A stretch of 64,000 bases of DNA from assembly GCA_045599365.1 (NCBI GenBank), contig JAZRVS010000129.1, forward strand, positions 1,684 through 65,683. Reading direction: 5' to 3'. The position numbers and the translations under genes are program-made. Source of the stretch: Bacteroidales bacterium. Lineage in GTDB: Bacteria > Bacteroidota > Bacteroidia > Bacteroidales > UBA1715. Of this stretch, positions 1-63,730 are shown in pieces. The notes under the pieces were generated by a model, which was not told where the DNA came from, did not search any database, and saw nothing but the letters and a program-made list of their open reading frames with translations. The first letter of the stretch is position 1. Each line of letters starts with the position of its first letter.

Positions 1-209
1 TTTTCAATAAAATCAATGACTTAACTTGATGGGGGGTCTGACATTTTACTCGGCTTTATGGAAATTTCAAAGAATATGTTATATGAAAAAAATAGAAAGA
101 ATAAGAGGCATATTGGTTATTTGGAGCAATAACATATTGATATTATTGAAAAACCAGTTACAAGTTTATTATTAACCTATTGATTTTATTGGATTTTATA
201 AATCGCAAC

Positions 210-304: not shown

Positions 305-327
305 AAACTAGGTTCAACACCTAGTTT
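305..327 (+). other. 5' leader hairpin AAACTAGGT-n5-ACCTAGTTT
   Basis: 9-bp inverted repeat read directly, between P1 and the RBS of ORF 348. The same stem core recurs at 63691-63713. Confidence 0.45.
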
Positions 328-2865: not shown

Positions 2866-3089
2866 CTTGGGAAGAGTTATGCGAAAAGGCAAGAGAACTT
2901 GGGTATTGTCTTCATGAAGATGATTTGTTTGACGCACTAGATGGATATGGAAAAGTTTGTTATTTGGAAAAGAGAAACGGAGGCGTTTCGTTTTATGAAA
3001 AAGGAGGTATAGAAACAAATTTTGAAGTATTTGCCGAAAACAGAACTTATGAACAGATGTATGCAATAATGAAAGCATTGGAGGGATAA
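2862..3089 (+). CDS. hypothetical protein, TWEEL...RTYEQMY family (paralog 1)
   Basis: GGGAGG RBS before ATG 2862. MTWEELCEKARELGY...RTYEQMYAIMKALEG is paralogous to the C-terminal half of ORF 3090. Confidence 0.6.
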   Translation: MTWEELCEKARELGYCLHEDDLFDALDGYGKVCYLEKRNGGVSFYEKGGIETNFEVFAENRTYEQMYAIMKALEG

Positions 3090-3524
3090 ATGACAATTAA
3101 AGAAATTGAAATGTTAAGAGAAGAAAATATAAAACTTGCAGAAAAAATTGAAATTTCAAGAGATGCTGTTAGAACACTTAAAGAACAGTGTGATTATTGG
3201 TATTATATAGCAACAAAAGAAAACAATAAGTTAAAATACGAACACTCTCCGTTTTCGTGTTTTAAATGGTTTGGGAAAAAACTTAAAATTAAAACTCCAA
3301 TGACTTGGGAACGACTTGTTGAAAAAGCAGAAAAGATTGGTTACAGGCTCGTTTGTACAATGAACGAAGAACTTTTAGCCAAAGAATATGAAATAGGAAA
3401 ACACCTTGTGTTTAGAAAAAACGGAAAGTTTGAAATTATTTTTCCAGCTCGTTTTCAAGAAACGATATTAAAAGAAAGAACATACGAACAGATGTACGAA
3501 ATTATAAAAGAATTGGAGGATTAA
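3090..3524 (+). CDS. hypothetical protein, coiled-coil N-terminus plus TWERL...RTYEQMY domain (paralog 2)
   Basis: The C-terminal half MTWERLVEKAEKIGY...RTYEQMYEIIKELED matches the whole of ORF 2862. Confidence 0.6.
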   Translation: MTIKEIEMLREENIKLAEKIEISRDAVRTLKEQCDYWYYIATKENNKLKYEHSPFSCFKWFGKKLKIKTPMTWERLVEKAEKIGYRLVCTMNEELLAKEYEIGKHLVFRKNGKFEIIFPARFQETILKERTYEQMYEIIKELED

Positions 3525-3827
3525 ATGAAATTATTAAATTATACGAACGTTAAAGGAAGCAGAACGGCAACAAGTTTAGAAAAAGATTTTCTTGATGCGT
3601 TTAATGAAATTTGCAAAATGGAGAATTTGAAGAAGAGTCATTTTCTACCAGTTTTTGAATTATGTTTTGAAGAAAATATGGCGTCAAGCATACGAACGTT
3701 TGTATTGGCGTATTATAGAAGATTAGCGAATTTGAAAACTGAATTAGATGTCAAATTGATTTTAAAATTAGCAACAGTTGAAAAATTAAAAAGAAGAGAA
3801 AAGAGATTAAATGAAAATTACTTATGA
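3525..3827 (+). CDS. hypothetical protein
   Basis: GGAGGA RBS. Co-directional packed ORF. Confidence 0.55.
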   Translation: MKLLNYTNVKGSRTATSLEKDFLDAFNEICKMENLKKSHFLPVFELCFEENMASSIRTFVLAYYRRLANLKTELDVKLILKLATVEKLKRREKRLNENYL

Positions 3828-4068
3828 TAAAGGAACATTGTATTGTTTAGGAAATGAGAAAGTCTTGAAAAAAGACCCGAGAAGTGATAAGAAATATATG
3901 TTTCGTAAAAAACAAAGCTATGCTAGATTTGTTTTAGAAAATCACTTGGGAAGAAAATTAGAACGAAATGAAGTTGTTTATCATCTGGACGGAGATGTTT
4001 ATAACAATGAGATTTCAAATTTAGAAGTTATAACAAGAGCAGAATTGATTAGGAGGAATTCAAAATGA
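3811..4068 (+). CDS. small HNH-family endonuclease
   Basis: VVYHLDGDVYNNEISNLEVI fits the H-x-DG-x3-NN-x3-NL HNH core. Confidence 0.7.
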   Translation: MKITYDKGTLYCLGNEKVLKKDPRSDKKYMFRKKQSYARFVLENHLGRKLERNEVVYHLDGDVYNNEISNLEVITRAELIRRNSK

Positions 4069-4634
4069 GAAAAATATTTAATATTGAAAATGAAAACGAA
4101 AGAGAAGAGTTATTTGGTATTTTACCAGAAGATGTTGTTAAAATTGAAAGAGATTCTTTTAATAATACAATCTTTACTTACACAGACGGTTGTAAAGCAA
4201 CAAGTAACTTGTTTCAAATAAATTTTGGCAACTTGGCATTCATAACAAGACCTGTTGACCCGAAGGACTTGATTGGAAGTTTAGTTTGGTACAAAATTCA
4301 CGAGTCACAAGAGGCAAGAATTGGTTTCTTGTTAAAAGTAGTTGATGACGAAGAAAAACCTTATGTTTGTACGTCGTCTATTTCAGCACAAATTTTTCAC
4401 GATTGTTGCTGGATTAGAGCCGTAGCGAAAGACGAAATTTCAATTTATGAGCCGAAGGTTGAGGTTGCGTTACCTGAGAAAAAAGTTAATCGTAAAATAC
4501 CAGGTCGCAAAGGTAAATTCACATTGGAACAAAAAATTGAAATTGCTCGTTCAAAAAAGAGCATAAGAGAATTGATGGTTCAATATGATTGTACTGGAAA
4601 AACGATTTCAACTTATAGAAAGAAATACAGATGA
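4065..4634 (+). CDS. hypothetical protein with C-terminal HTH-like segment
   Basis: AGGAGG RBS. The C-terminus LTLEQKIEIARSKKSIRELMVQYDCTGKTISTYRKKY resembles resolvase/transposase-type HTH tails. Confidence 0.5.
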   Translation: MRKIFNIENENEREELFGILPEDVVKIERDSFNNTIFTYTDGCKATSNLFQINFGNLAFITRPVDPKDLIGSLVWYKIHESQEARIGFLLKVVDDEEKPYVCTSSISAQIFHDCCWIRAVAKDEISIYEPKVEVALPEKKVNRKIPGRKGKFTLEQKIEIARSKKSIRELMVQYDCTGKTISTYRKKYR

Positions 4635-8411: not shown

Positions 8412-9721
8412 AGTTGAGAGATTATCAATTAAAACAACTTGCTTTTCATTTGTCGGCAGACAGAACAATCAATCGTTCTGCTCCCTCAACTGGAAAGACA
8501 GCAACAGTTTGCACATATATGAAGATTAAATACAGAAACGAAAAGAAAAAGGCAGTTTTTGTTATGCCGTCTTCAATTATGTTGAAAAACAAAGAAGAGG
8601 TTTGTAACTGGTGTGAGTATTCAGAAGATGAAGTTGCGATTTGTAACGGAACACCAGCTAAACGTCTGGCTCAATATCAAGACAAAAACATAAAAGTTTT
8701 TGAAATGACATTTGAATGTTTTTCAAAAGAATGGCATTTGTTACCAAAAGACGTTGACGTTGTTATAATTGATGAATTTCATTTAGGTTTTTCAACTCAC
8801 ACAAGCAAACGAACTCAATCTTATTATCGTTCGTCAAGACGCTTTAAATATTTTATTATGATGAGTGGTACTTTGATTGACGGAAGATACAATTCAGCTT
8901 ATCCTGCTATTTGTGTAATTGAGCCGAGATATTATTTGAATTATGAAAACTTTATGCATTATCACGCAATTTACAACACTTGGGGTCAGGTTGTCGGTTG
9001 GAGAAATCCAGACAAAATCAAAGAGATTTTAAAACGACACTCTTGCTCAATTTCCGTTGAAGAAGCGTATAAAGACAGAAAGGAAAACATAATCATTTAT
9101 GAGAAATGTCAACTTGACGATAAGCATAAGAAAGCTTATTTACAAATGGAAAAAGATGCTCTGTTGGAATTAGAAGATAAATACATTGAAGCAGATTCGG
9201 GAGGTGTGAAACAAATTCGTTGTCGTCAGATTTTATCTTGTCCAGAAGTTTTAGATTTGAAAGTGGATAAGATTGGAAAAGACGAAATGTTGAAAATTCA
9301 TTTAGAAGACGCAGTTGCTTATAAAAAACAACTTTTGATTTTTGCAATTTTTGAAGCAGAACAAAAACGAATAGCAGAAGTTTGCAGACAAAATGGTTTG
9401 AAAACAGAAATAATTAACGGCACAGTTTCTTCAAAAAGACGTGGAGAAATTGACGTAGCATTTAGAAATGGTGAAATTGACGTTGTTGTTGGTTCACCAG
9501 CAACGTGTTCAATCGGTTTCAACTGGGAACACGTTGACCAAGTGATTTTTGCGAGTTGTGATTATAAAGATTCAACTTTTGAACAAGCCATAGCTCGTGG
9601 AAATAGGGGAACTAGAAAAACCCCACTTCGTGTGTATATTCTTACTTACGACACAAAAGTTGAAAGGAGAATTATGCAAATTATTAAAAGAAAATCGGAA
9701 GAAAGTAAAAAAATCTCTTGA
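8408..9721 (+). CDS. SF2 (DEAD/SNF2-like) helicase
   Basis: Walker A APSTGKTAT, motif II IIDEFH, motif III SGT, motif VI QAIARGNRG. Confidence 0.9.
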   Translation: MKLRDYQLKQLAFHLSADRTINRSAPSTGKTATVCTYMKIKYRNEKKKAVFVMPSSIMLKNKEEVCNWCEYSEDEVAICNGTPAKRLAQYQDKNIKVFEMTFECFSKEWHLLPKDVDVVIIDEFHLGFSTHTSKRTQSYYRSSRRFKYFIMMSGTLIDGRYNSAYPAICVIEPRYYLNYENFMHYHAIYNTWGQVVGWRNPDKIKEILKRHSCSISVEEAYKDRKENIIIYEKCQLDDKHKKAYLQMEKDALLELEDKYIEADSGGVKQIRCRQILSCPEVLDLKVDKIGKDEMLKIHLEDAVAYKKQLLIFAIFEAEQKRIAEVCRQNGLKTEIINGTVSSKRRGEIDVAFRNGEIDVVVGSPATCSIGFNWEHVDQVIFASCDYKDSTFEQAIARGNRGTRKTPLRVYILTYDTKVERRIMQIIKRKSEESKKIS

Positions 9722-9795: not shown

Positions 9796-10551
9796 ATGAT
9801 TTTAGATAAAAATGTTTTAGCACAAATGAAAGCAGCAGGACTTCAAAAACCAGATATGGTTAGCGATATGGAATGGGAAAATTGTGATTCTCAAATTGAA
9901 GACAGTTTGCCAATCGTTGAAGTACCAGCTGTTCAACAAGCAGTTGTTCCTGTTGTTCCAATGCAACAAGCAGTTGTTCCTTCACAACAAGCAAATTATA
10001 TTGCAAAACCTTTAAGTATGTCTGATACTTTGCAATCTAGCAGTATGGTTGTTGACGCAACATTAAAATTAAAAAGTGGTGTTGTTAAAATTGGAGATTC
10101 AGCTGTTAGAACTCCTATTGTGGCAAAAGTTTTGTTTTCAGAATCAAAAGTGAAACAAACAATCACAGTTGAAAATTCTAAAAAAGAAATTGAATATTAC
10201 CACACATACGACGGCAGAGTTGAATCAAGAACTGGACGCTTGTTCCAAGATTGTGTAAATCATTGTACTTCAATCAATCCAAAAGCTTATGCTTTCACAG
10301 CTTTTGATATTGTTATGGAAATCACAGAAGATGTTTTGGATGAAGACGGAAGAGTGGCAGTAAAAGCTGGTACACGAATTGGTCATAGCACAAGTTCAAC
10401 GACAGCTACGAAATTTAAACAATTTTTAAATCAATGTAAGCAAGCAGGAGTTGACGTAAATAATGGAGAAGCAGGGGTTAAAATCAAAACTGAACTTCGT
10501 ACAAACAACAATCGTCAAGATTTCAGAGTGTTTGTTTTTGAAATGATTTAA
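9796..10551 (+). CDS. hypothetical protein with QQAVVP tandem repeat (ssDNA-binding or recombination role only guessed from position)
   Basis: AAGGA RBS. The 18-bp direct repeat caacaagcagttgttcct occurs at 9934 and 9964. The gene sits between the helicase and the FEN nuclease. Confidence 0.5.
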   Translation: MILDKNVLAQMKAAGLQKPDMVSDMEWENCDSQIEDSLPIVEVPAVQQAVVPVVPMQQAVVPSQQANYIAKPLSMSDTLQSSSMVVDATLKLKSGVVKIGDSAVRTPIVAKVLFSESKVKQTITVENSKKEIEYYHTYDGRVESRTGRLFQDCVNHCTSINPKAYAFTAFDIVMEITEDVLDEDGRVAVKAGTRIGHSTSSTTATKFKQFLNQCKQAGVDVNNGEAGVKIKTELRTNNNRQDFRVFVFEMI

Positions 10552-10558
10552 TAAGAGT

Positions 10559-10601
10559 TTGGAGCGAGATTTAATTATTTTTGAGGGCAATCTCGCTCCA
10601 A
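10559..10601 (+). other. Intergenic stem-loop TTGGAGCGAGAT-n19-ATCTCGCTCCAA
   Basis: Perfect 12-bp inverted repeat read directly. It is followed by AAGGAG and ATG 10619. Confidence 0.6.
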
Positions 10602-13341: not shown

Positions 13342-13536
13342 ATGAAAAAGAAAGTTGAGAATCTTCAAAAACAATTAGAGATAGCAAAACAATGTCTTAA
13401 AATGTATGGAAACAGAACTTTGTGGAATGAAAAAGGAGATTGTTTTATGACGTTTAAAGACGGCTATACTTACGCACAAGAAGCTTTGGAAAGAATGGAG
13501 GGTTGTGAATGGAAAACGAAAGAGAATTCGTTATAA
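13342..13536 (+). CDS. hypothetical protein, LQKQLEIAxxxLK motif family
   Basis: GGGAG RBS. LQKQLEIAKQCLKMYGN is shared with ORFs 14371 and 14864. Confidence 0.55.
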   Translation: MKKKVENLQKQLEIAKQCLKMYGNRTLWNEKGDCFMTFKDGYTYAQEALERMEGCEWKTKENSL

Positions 13537-14183
13537 ACGAATATAAAAACGAAGTTCCTATGGCACATATAGCAAAGAAAATAGGAGTTACTCCAGCCAC
13601 AATTAAAAATAGGCTTGTTAAATGGGGTGAGTTTAATTATAATAAAAAAATTACATTGAAAGAAAAGTGTTTGCGAAGCAATGTTTCTTATGGTGCTGTG
13701 CTTTCAAAATGTAAAAAATATAACTTAACACAAGAAGAAGCAATTGAAGAAGTAAAAGCTGGAATTAAAAGATATAGATTTCCTGAAAAATATAAAGAAG
13801 GAACAATGACTCGTGAATGTTATTTGGCAGGTCTTAATTATAGGTGTGTTTTGGCTAGAATGCGTAACAAAAAAGAGTCTGTTAAAGAAGCAATTGATTA
13901 TTTAAAAAAAAGAAGAGAAAGATTAGAAGCTGTACATCGTGAATGCGAGTTAAAAGGGCTAAATCACAAATATGTTTTGGCAAAAATGAATACAAAAAAT
14001 ATTTCTTTGGAAGAAGCAATTGAAGAAATGAAATATTACAAGACTATAAAACGAAGAGTTGTAAGAAAAAAAGAAAATGAAGTCAGAATGATTGAAGGTT
14101 TATCTTTGAAAGAATATGCTGAAAAGTATGGAATGAGTTTGTCTACAGCTAGATTGCATTGGAGAATTTTAAATGAGAAATGA
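13509..14183 (+). CDS. HTH protein with three internal ~45-aa repeats
   Basis: N-terminal HTH PMAHIAKKIGVTPATIKNRL. Repeats LTQEEAIEEVK / ESVKEAIDYLK / ISLEEAIEEMK, each preceded by a Y..VL.K. segment. Confidence 0.55.
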   Translation: MENEREFVINEYKNEVPMAHIAKKIGVTPATIKNRLVKWGEFNYNKKITLKEKCLRSNVSYGAVLSKCKKYNLTQEEAIEEVKAGIKRYRFPEKYKEGTMTRECYLAGLNYRCVLARMRNKKESVKEAIDYLKKRRERLEAVHRECELKGLNHKYVLAKMNTKNISLEEAIEEMKYYKTIKRRVVRKKENEVRMIEGLSLKEYAEKYGMSLSTARLHWRILNEK

Positions 14184-16800: not shown

Positions 16801-17071
16801 AGAAAATTGTTTAGAAACAGCAAAAGCTTGTGTTACACAAGACAGACAAAATGATTATGGAAAACCAGAAAACAATTTCCAAAACATCGCTAATTTATGG
16901 AACGCTTATTTTGGAAAAGAGATTGTTAATTCAACTGACGTTTCTATTTTACTTATGCTTTTGAAAGTGGCAAGACTTAAAACAAGTCCTCACAAAGAAG
17001 ATAACTGGGTTGACATTGCAGGTTACGCAGCTTGTGGTTGCGAAATTTCAACTTTAACTATTGACAAGTAA
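16793..17071 (+). CDS. conserved phage protein (DUF6378-like, putative)
   Basis: DRQNDYGKPENNFQNIANLWNAYFG...LLMLLKVARL...EDNWVDIAGYAACG resembles the DRxxxYG..NF..IA.LW phage domain. Called from memory only. Confidence 0.5.
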   Translation: MNRENCLETAKACVTQDRQNDYGKPENNFQNIANLWNAYFGKEIVNSTDVSILLMLLKVARLKTSPHKEDNWVDIAGYAACGCEISTLTIDK

Positions 17072-17089
17072 TTTTTATTGTGATAGATT
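17061..17089 (+). promoter_or_regulatory. sigma70-type promoter
   Basis: TTGACA 17061-17066, 17-nt spacer, TGaTAGATT 17081-17089. It overlaps the stop of ORF 16793. Confidence 0.6.
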
Positions 17090-17094
17090 TGTTA

Positions 17095-17161
17095 TTGGAG
17101 CAGGAAGGCTTTTGTTTTCATAAAATTCTCCCATAAAAATCTCTCATTCTTCCTGCTCCAA
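17095..17161 (+). other. Stem-loop: 13-bp perfect inverted repeat TTGGAGCAGGAAG / CTTCCTGCTCCAA with 41-nt loop
   Basis: Read directly. It starts about 6 nt after the -10 at 17084-17089. Confidence 0.65.
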
Positions 17162-17169
17162 GATGTAAA

Positions 17170-17316
17170 ATGACAAAAGAAGAAAAAGCAAGACGAATTA
17201 TAACAAAGTTACAAATTAGATTGACAGTTGAAAAATGTCGTCCGTCAATGAGATTGATTTGCAGAAAACGTTGGGATAAGATTATGCCAATTCTGTTGAA
17301 GGAAAGACAAAAATAA
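17170..17316 (+). CDS. possible 48-aa basic sORF
   Basis: Hand translation MTKEEKARRIITKLQIRLTVEKCRPSMRLICRKRWDKIMPILLKERQK has 16 K/R in 48 residues. No convincing SD. Confidence 0.3.
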   Translation: MTKEEKARRIITKLQIRLTVEKCRPSMRLICRKRWDKIMPILLKERQK

Positions 17317-17320
17317 TTTC

Positions 17321-17349
17321 TTGACAAGTGTTTCAAAAAATTATATATT
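17321..17349 (+). promoter_or_regulatory. sigma70-type promoter of the polymerase operon
   Basis: TTGACA 17321-17326, 17-nt spacer, TATATT 17344-17349. Confidence 0.6.
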
Positions 17350-17355
17350 ATTTAC

Positions 17356-17450
17356 GATATGGTTTTTCTCAACTTTCTTCCCATATCTTAAGTGAGAGCG
17401 ATTCCCTCCTAAACCAAAATCGCTCTCACACCCACTAAAAAGTTGAGAAA
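17356..17450 (+). ncRNA. structured 5' leader (candidate cis-regulatory RNA)
   Basis: Three inverted-repeat pairs: GATATGG 17356 / CCATATC 17381; TTTCTCAACTTT 17365 / AAAGTTGAGAAA 17439; GTGAGAGCGATT 17392 / AATCGCTCTCAC 17418, whose loop is CCCTCCTAAACCAA. Confidence 0.45.
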
Positions 17451-62531: not shown

Positions 62532-62636
62532 GTTAAAAAAGAAAGAGAAAAGGATGAAAACATCTCGGAACTTGGTAAGTGTTAAAAAAAGAAAGAGAAA
62601 AGGATGAAAACATCTCGGAACTTGGTAAGTGTTAAA
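62532..62636 (+). repeat. tandem duplication 49 + 50 bp, plus a 6-bp third start
   Basis: The unit gttaaaaaa(a)gaaagagaaaaggatgaaaacatctcggaacttggtaagt occurs at 62532-62580 and 62581-62630. The copies differ by one A. Confidence 0.95.
62554..62607 (+). CDS. uORF1 (17 aa) created by repeat copy 1
   Basis: AAAAGG then ATG. MKTSRNLVSVKKRKRKG. Its stop TGA overlaps the ATG of uORF2 (ATGA). Confidence 0.35.
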   Translation: MKTSRNLVSVKKRKRKG

Positions 62637-63487: not shown

Positions 63488-63595
63488 CTTGGAGCTGGTG
63501 TTGGTGGCAAGTGGTGAGTGCCCAGCTCAAAATAAGCTGCTCCAAGTAGTAAGTGCCAAGTGCCCAGCTCCAAGTTCCCATACGCTTGGAGCTGG
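63488..63595. repeat. five copies of the 11-mer CTTGGAGC(T/A)G(G/C) in alternating orientation
   Basis: Forward copies at 63488-63498 and 63585-63595. Reverse copies at 63522-63528 (partial), 63536-63546 and 63564-63574. The region is locally GC-rich. Confidence 0.85.
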
Positions 63596-63690
63596 CACAC
63601 TTGAAAATCAAAAATTGGGTCGGTTGGTGTGAGGGAGTGGGTTGGGAAGTTATCCTGTTTTTTCGGTATATTTTAGGGATGGGCTTTTTT

Positions 63691-63730
63691 TAACTAGGTG
63701 CACAACCTAGTTATTTTTTTTTATTTTTTA
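63691..63730 (+). terminator. rho-independent terminator
   Basis: TAACTAGGT-gcaca-ACCTAGTTA hairpin followed by a long T-rich tract. Confidence 0.75.

Follow-up and report, generated by a model that had tools for sequence, protein, structure and literature searches.

Intergenic stem-loops built on a shared heptamer in the replication region of an uncultured siphovirus

The gap upstream of a FEN exonuclease gene in this phage DNA carries a perfect inverted repeat that opens with the heptamer TTGGAGC and closes with its complement GCTCCAA, and the same word frames inverted repeats in other gaps. What are these elements, do they act as RNA or as DNA, and why do they share a word? The window, that is the whole stretch of 64,000 nucleotides analysed here, corresponds to positions 1684-65683 of contig JAZRVS010000129.1 (C129) of an assembly of 196 contigs and 2.86 Mb; coordinates refer to the window unless C129 is named. 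The initial annotation had reported intergenic inverted repeats on this heptamer at three sites, and we found all of them where it had placed them. Together they form four hairpin-forming elements, all in non-coding DNA:

10559-10601, + strand: site 1, perfect 13-bp stem TTGGAGCGAGATT / AATCTCGCTCCAA with a 17-nt loop.
17095-17161, + strand: site 2, perfect 13-bp stem TTGGAGCAGGAAG / CTTCCTGCTCCAA with a 41-nt C-rich, G-poor loop.
63488-63546, + strand: site 3a, CTTGGAGC...GCTCCAAG, 9 bp, with a structured spacer of ~41 nt.
63557-63603, + strand: site 3b, CAAGTG-C-CCAGCTCCAAG / CTTGGAGCTGG-CA-CACTTG, 11 + 6 bp, with a 10-nt loop.

The position and perfection of the site 1 repeat were described correctly, but its arms are one base pair longer (13 bp) and its loop is n17. 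The repeat at 63488-63546 also exists as described, but only 9 bp of it are complementary. The stem of site 2 becomes 14 bp if a G-U pair is counted on the + strand. We give even chances to the reading that the four elements are RNA stem-loops of the sense transcript that mark the boundaries of replication-operon transcripts.

The contig is 68,118 bp long with an end overlap of 141 bp, which indicates a circular assembly of ~67,977 bp (~68 kb). Its GC content is 34%, and it carries siphovirus genes (tape-measure protein, J-like tail protein, major head protein and TerL) together with a replication module:

8408, + strand: helicase.
9796, + strand: conserved 251-aa protein.
10619, + strand: FEN.
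16117, + strand: methyltransferase (MTase).
16787, + strand: DUF6378 protein.
17470 and 17838, + strand: 124-aa protein and DNA polymerase.
21704, + strand: SbcC-like protein.
60040, + strand: PrimPol-D5 helicase.
62690, + strand: second MTase.

SD-like motifs stand upstream of 75% of the long ORFs on C129, compared with ~6% on the other large contigs of the assembly, and the promoter-like sites are of the TTGACA/TATAAT type (55 versus 38 in shuffles, these being consensus predictions in AT-rich DNA). Both features set C129 apart from the Bacteroidales bin. Most likely, it is a phage mis-binned into a Bacteroidales MAG, and its host is of the Bacillota type. Close relatives were found neither in an annotated phage collection nor by a FEN-based search of viral and genome collections, and exact hairpin-pattern scans of viral contigs returned nothing related. 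Relatives retrieved via FEN (~50% identity) and the primase-helicase (73% identity) form a large family of uncultured 65-80-kb phages; their loci are labelled L092 to L109 below.

The heptamer is over-represented, and its pairing even more strikingly so. The comparison with shuffled sequence that the initial annotation proposed gave 11 copies in the window versus 4.9±2.1, with one shuffle in 100 reaching 11. On the ~68-kb circle there are 13 copies, which form four convergent pairs within 150 nt where random placement predicts 0.09; none of 200,000 trials reached four, and a chance origin of the pairs is excluded. Ten of the 13 copies lie in non-coding DNA, which makes up 5.6% of the circle (p = 7e-11). 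Counting stems of ≥11 bp, the contig is also ~4-fold enriched in perfect hairpins (15 versus a Markov mean of 3.6 and maximum of 9), and an outer 7-mer shared between hairpins arose in 1 of 200 Markov simulations. A scan of the whole 2.86-Mb assembly found only four convergent heptamer pairs, three of them on C129. The 434 copies found elsewhere in the assembly are invalid as a background for the count, since SD usage puts the phage outside that bin.

Not every copy belongs to a hairpin. Outside the paired sites, heptamers lie at C129 520 and 779 in the left terminal non-coding cluster, the former as part of a long-range 12-bp inverted repeat (GGGCACTTGGAG...CTCCAAGTGCCC). The lone TTGGAGC at window 121 was rejected as a family member, because it is a variant within an unrelated direct repeat of ~70 bp in the early non-coding region (window 92-167 and C129 1176-1250; ATAGAAAGAATAAGAG..ATTGGTTATTTGGAG(C/G)..ATAAC..TTGAT..TATTGAAAAAC).

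We compared sites 1 and 2 outside and inside the word. Inside it, 14 of 14 positions agree; outside it, neither the loops nor the upper stems nor the flanks have significant similarity, and at both sites the edge of the heptamer is the exact end of the helix. The claim that the stem extensions differ between sites and yet stay complementary was thus confirmed, which marks the elements as selected nucleic-acid structures. The lack of residual similarity outside the 14 identical positions disfavours a recent duplication, and the heptamer itself appears to be under constraint. A recent joint duplication of MTase and hairpin was rejected as well: the two MTases are only 32% identical and the sites share the heptamer alone.

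Conservation of the motif itself, however, fails. None of the relatives examined has paired heptamers, contrary to what the initial annotation's test of motif conservation anticipated, and none was found among 80 viral loci retrieved via the DNA polymerase. Its proposal that a structure plus a fixed recognition word is selected therefore survives in part: the complementary extensions, hairpins in orthologous gaps and the constrained heptamer speak for it, but the word is absent from relatives. The heptamer is a signature specific to this phage. It may have no common function at all, ordinary terminator and leader stem-loops having come to share a base by descent or by short-patch gene conversion, a reading to which we assign a low probability, about one chance in five. 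Hairpin families with a fixed core and a variable remainder are common within genomes of this phage group, site 2 and the repeats of site 3 were added in this lineage, and GGAGC/GCTCC is a convenient GC clamp at 34% GC; these points and the lack of the paired word in relatives favour it. Against it, neutral decay that brought the rest of sites 1 and 2 to random level should have reached the base too, where 14 of 14 positions are kept, and it does not account for the exact match of heptamer edge and helix end.

Other repeats were noted in the group. L099 has two identical hairpins. L097 (14290-14400) and L098 (14300-14480) carry short tandem repeat arrays (AAACCAAAGC / AAACCAAACAT) after an MT-A70 gene, the array of L098 being interrupted by an N-run. 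In L095, a TnpB-like (Cas12f1-like_TNB) gene occupies 2929-4284 within the replication module.

While the word is private to this phage, the hairpin before FEN is not. Site 1 lies between the stop codon of the 251-aa gene (10551) and the SD and ATG of FEN (10619). It folds with -21 kcal/mol (z = -3.0 on the + strand and -5.5 on the - strand), has no T-run 3' of the stem and no convincing promoter adjacent to it. A hairpin is present in this gap in six of six lineages, this phage included, with unrelated stem sequences; in four of the six it is followed by a T-run, and T-runs occur only 3' on the sense strand.

This phage (site 1), gap before FEN: 5' arm TTGGAGCGAGATT, loop of 17 nt.
L092, gap before FEN: 5' arm GCAAGACGATG, loop of 36 nt.
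L093/L094, gap before FEN: 5' arm TGTCGGGGAACT, loop of 24 or 28 nt.
L095, gap before FEN: 5' arm GGTGATGGAAGAAGT, loop of 20 nt.
L096, gap before FEN: 5' arm ATGTTTCGGACGGG, loop GAAA.
L107/L109, gap before FEN: 5' arm GGAGGGTAG, loop of 6 nt, then TTTTTT.

The hairpin of L107 is a textbook intrinsic terminator. Those of L093 and L094 differ solely in the length of the T-run in the loop, so the stem is the constrained part. At site 1, conservation therefore concerns a hairpin of terminator or attenuator type, kept by compensatory change, and not the heptamer. Site 1 would then be this phage's version of the ancestral hairpin, with the U-tract lost; given that loss, it would most likely pause or attenuate transcription, or block 3' exonucleases. 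Either role would favour the upstream message over FEN and later genes.

Two other explanations of the gap hairpin were discarded. A switch in which the 3' arm hides the ribosome-binding site of FEN by SD/anti-SD pairing gave a weak alternative pairing (-5 to -8 kcal/mol), and a promoter inside the loop is plausible in L092 only, and is not general. The 251-aa protein (window 9796-10551, + strand) is itself family-wide at 37-43% identity, always between helicase and FEN and always followed by the hairpin. It had no sequence match in Pfam, PHROG or PDB; its AlphaFold model (pLDDT 72) resembles, only weakly, OB-fold ssDNA-binding modules and the phiC31 RDF.

Site 2 has a different setting, at the start of a predicted transcription unit:

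17061-17089, + strand: predicted sigma-A-type promoter, TTGACA-17-(TGa)TAGATT, 10 of 12 consensus matches plus TG.
17170-17316, + strand: 48-aa basic ORF downstream of site 2, no SD.
17392-17429, + strand: leader hairpin without the heptamer, 12-bp stem, loop CCCTCC..., z = -9.3.

The predicted -10 element ends 6 nt before site 2, with the stem starting at about +1, and site 2 ends 8 nt before the ATG of the 48-codon ORF. This ORF is probably a real gene, with one homologue (69% identical, E = 1e-13); the homologue, in its own context (L106), has no hairpin upstream. Further downstream, the 17392 hairpin lies in the leader of the operon of the 124-aa protein and DNA polymerase, behind a promoter TTGACA-17-TATATT (17321-17349). 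Before the polymerase pair, L092 has counterparts of the 17321 promoter and the 17392 hairpin only, so this phage has an additional unit, composed of the 17061 promoter, site 2 and the 48-codon ORF, at the border of a lineage-specific region. Site 2 would form the 5'-terminal stem-loop of the 17061-promoter transcript. In a host of the Bacillota type, it would thereby shield this RNA from decay that depends on the 5' end; RNase J/Y-type decay logic is plausible given the SD sites and TTGACA/TATAAT promoters of the phage. The same hairpin may also end the upstream message that runs from FEN to MTase-DUF6378. As a separate observation, nested 12-bp stems (TTTCTCAACTTT...AAAGTTGAGAAA) surround the 17392 hairpin, giving a long folded leader (window 17365-17450) that pairs with the purine-rich ribosome-binding region of the 124-aa gene.

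The third location follows the second MTase gene. Site 3a starts 3 nt past the MTase stop codon, and its 5' arm CTTGGAGCTGG has a better alternative partner (11 bp) in CCAGCTCCAAG at 63564-63574. Site 3b is a strong hairpin with the heptamer at the top of the stem, and its 3' stem base overlaps a non-coding block conserved in relatives downstream of site 3 (TGGCACACTTGAAAA...AAAATTGGG.CGG...GTGAG.GGG). At the position of the TTGGAGC repeats, relatives have a G-rich sequence instead. Five metagenome matches to the site-3 palindrome proved unrelated, one of them (L103) being a fold-back at a contig end within a coding region. Sites 3a and 3b together would end the primase-MTase message. The gap between primase-helicase and second MTase also contains a near-perfect tandem duplication of ~49 bp (GTTAAAAAAAGAAAGAGAAAAGGATGAAAACATCTCGGAACTTGGTAAGT; window 62532-62630).

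We then considered whether the elements work as RNA or as DNA. On the sense strand of the hairpin loops, C outnumbers G by 63 to 21, although the background C/(C+G) of that strand is 0.36 (p = 6e-13); the loops are C-rich and G-poor in eight of nine hairpins, site 1 being the exception. This strand bias points to action at the RNA level. Folding energies are alike on both strands and do not favour the + strand. Purine-rich 5' arms were dropped as strand evidence, because a perfect palindrome has an identical 5' arm on either strand. All heptamer elements lie in gaps between same-strand genes, 3-23 nt past a stop codon. Within this phage, hairpins flush with a predicted +1 also follow the promoters at 9718, 17321, 63742 and C129 66430, and three relatives (L092, L093 and L095) show them at the promoter of the helicase gap. 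Structures, positions, conservation in relatives and loop bias are observations, from which we infer the RNA-level roles proposed above. Elsewhere on the contig, shortly past the end of the window (C129 66427-66530), an inverted repeat TTATTGTAGCACTT-n15-AAGTGCTACAATAA encloses a perfect TTGACA-17-TACAAT promoter followed immediately by a 13-bp hairpin and T8; the locus is a candidate for a small RNA of ~60 nt, its promoter being spanned by an operator-like palindrome.

The heptamer fits an RNA role less easily, as a fully paired 7-bp word is unusual for RNA recognition and typical of readers of duplex DNA. It is conceivable, though improbable in our estimate, that duplex TTGGAGC is read by a phage DNA-binding protein, the hairpin potential being secondary or mirrored from a co-resident RNA hairpin. 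The targets would be the repeat cluster by the primase-helicase gene and genome end, as an origin, packaging or regulatory array, and the heptamers with which the units of FEN and the polymerase leader begin, as an operator or a roadblock. Six heptamers, each extended to CTTGGAGCTGG, are clustered in the terminal non-coding regions, with copies of a second repeat GGGCACTTGG lying between them, and positions +1 to +7, approximately, of a strong predicted promoter fall on the heptamer of site 2. The phage also encodes potential readers, namely a sigma70-region-4-like protein (224 aa), a Cro/C1 HTH protein and, beside the primase gene, a MerR/HTH_17 protein. Iteron plasmids, likewise, combine origin repeats with inverted partial repeats at rep promoters.

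Several features argue against such a DNA reader. Half-site spacings vary (12, 29, 43 and 53 bp), whereas the genuine palindromes of the group have constant spacing (CTAGGT-N5-ACCTAG, seven copies in this phage; CGGTGT-N6-ACACCG, four copies in L097), which excludes a palindromic operator for a dimer. Half-sites do not account for the 5-6 additional site-specific complementary base pairs at sites 1 and 2, nearly all copies are arranged as inverted and not as direct repeats, and the hairpins of relatives at the same position lack a shared word.

The second repeat family (GGGCACTTGG / CCAAGTGCCC) comprises three direct and two inverted copies at C129 490-660 and window 63500-63603; they partly overlap TTGGAGC copies and resemble a protein-binding array. 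The 224-aa protein (window 13509-14183, + strand) has weak, above-threshold matches to ECF sigma factors and sigma70 region 4 and a second, N-terminal HTH; it is possibly a sigma-like factor of the phage or a regulator with two HTHs. TTGGAGC as the -35 element of a phage sigma factor was rejected, since inspection by eye revealed no common element at a fixed spacing downstream. The CTAGGT palindromes, in full (AAAAA)CTAGGT-N5-ACCTAG(TTT), lie at window 308-324 and 63694-63710 and at C129 66382, 66543, 66771, 66959 and 67938, between small early genes and in some cases in the spacer of a promoter-like site, an arrangement that is PeSL-like (see below). Such palindromes might serve a dimeric regulator as operators, or act as small terminators in both directions.

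Returning to RNA stem-loops at transcript boundaries, we compared the elements with known systems. Classical terminators, one of the roles first suggested, do not describe them: none of the four hairpins has a T-run, and the 10 nt after each heptamer stem contain 1-3 T, versus 5-9 at the canonical terminators that the phage has elsewhere. The stems are stable (-20 to -22 kcal/mol), but the loops measure 17, 41, ~41 and 10 nt, where intrinsic terminators require 3-8 nt. The likeness is one of place, site 1 sitting where relatives carry a hairpin and T-run.

Classical RNase III sites, also suggested initially, fit no better. RNase III of B. subtilis (Bs-RNase III) cuts extended duplexes with weak pair preferences and no fixed word (PMC11780869), and the 13-bp stems are shorter than its duplexes; against about two helical turns, sites 1 and 2 offer 13-14 bp, and only site 3b reaches 17 bp, with bulges. 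The early mRNA of Bacillus phage SP82 is cited in PMC4838370 as the classical phage example of RNase III processing (Panganiban and Whiteley 1983). The T7 and SP82 hairpins are, as the heptamer elements would be, intercistronic stem-loops of a phage's early or middle transcripts that resemble one another in part of their sequence; those substrates, however, are longer and often have internal loops, in contrast to the 13-bp stems and large open loops here.

The PeSLs of T4-type phages are cassettes of promoter and stem-loop in which the stem-loops terminate transcription, attenuating what arrives from upstream, and ~100 bp of homology drives the shuffling of modules (PMC2839356, PMC4122927). 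Similarly, the heptamer elements are repeated and intergenic and have G-rich then C-rich stems, site 2 combines a predicted sigma70-type promoter with a stem-loop, and sites 2 and 3 lie beside lineage-specific genes. PeSLs, in contrast, share and recombine ~100 bp, not 7 bp, have the stem-loop upstream of or inside the promoter, and belong to another host type and phage family. Here a strong predicted promoter adjoins only site 2, where the stem-loop follows it, sites 1 and 3 lack a consensus promoter, and site 1 is within a conserved block.

Stem-loops at 5' ends and hairpins at 3' ends are established stabilisers of mRNA (ompA, aprE and ermC; PMC7509114). They resemble the present elements in that site 2 lies at a predicted transcript start, 6 nt from the predicted -10, and all elements lie just past stop codons. 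The known stabilisers differ in having no shared word, and here the transcript ends are predicted only, with no consensus promoter at sites 1 and 3. Rfam covariance models gave no match at gathering score, permissive scans yielding sub-threshold generic hairpins only, and the literature searched contained no comparable sequence-specific signal at a helix base.

A conserved helix base with a variable centre is known from the attC sites of integrons. We also weighed whether the elements act as single-stranded DNA or cruciforms in replication or recombination, either as priming signals for the PrimPol-helicase or as attC-like ends of MTase modules; this is the least probable of the readings, and we regard it as quite unlikely. 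All sites fall within the replication module, and sites 2 and 3 follow lineage-specific MTase genes at junctions of variable and conserved DNA. Core sites of attC, though, read RYYYAAC / GTTRRRY at the helix base, a consensus that GCTCCAA/TTGGAGC does not fit, and the 46 ORFs scanned, which cover part of the small ORFs, include no recombinase, HUH nuclease, transposase or ribonuclease. The low identity of the two MTases speaks against this reading, and the loop bias on the sense strand and the T-runs of relatives point to RNA. Site 1, moreover, marks no mosaic boundary, since both genes that flank it are orthologous across relatives. With this conserved block, homology limited to 7 bp and the result of the ORF scan, the initial suggestion of a recombination hotspot gains no support.

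RNA stem-loops at transcript boundaries thus agree best with strand bias and position, but one RNA-level role fails to explain the heptamer, as the contexts of the sites differ (intercistronic, +1 and operon end). Because the arms must pair, fixing a word in one arm of a stem also fixes its complement in the other. We hold with low confidence that one and the same factor recognises the heptamer. One form of this idea, which we regard as a minority possibility, is that the TTGGAGC/GCUCCAA duplex docks one phage factor, either a terminator, antiterminator or processing protein that binds RNA at the hairpin base, or a protein that recognises the word both as DNA in the repeat cluster of the genome end and in the leaders of the replication genes. 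If true, the docking factor would couple expression of FEN, the polymerase leader and the primase-methyltransferase genes to events at the genome terminus or origin.

Taken alone, the structural reading makes these elements ordinary punctuation of phage gene expression, whose main use would be for the annotation of a large and unstudied family, the 65-80-kb gut siphoviruses, in whose genomes the hairpin between FEN and the 251-aa gene is ancient. If a factor does read the heptamer, the phage would offer a compact system of four sites, one word and few candidate small proteins, and could show how replication genes are coordinated via a sequence-specific signal at the base of a helix.
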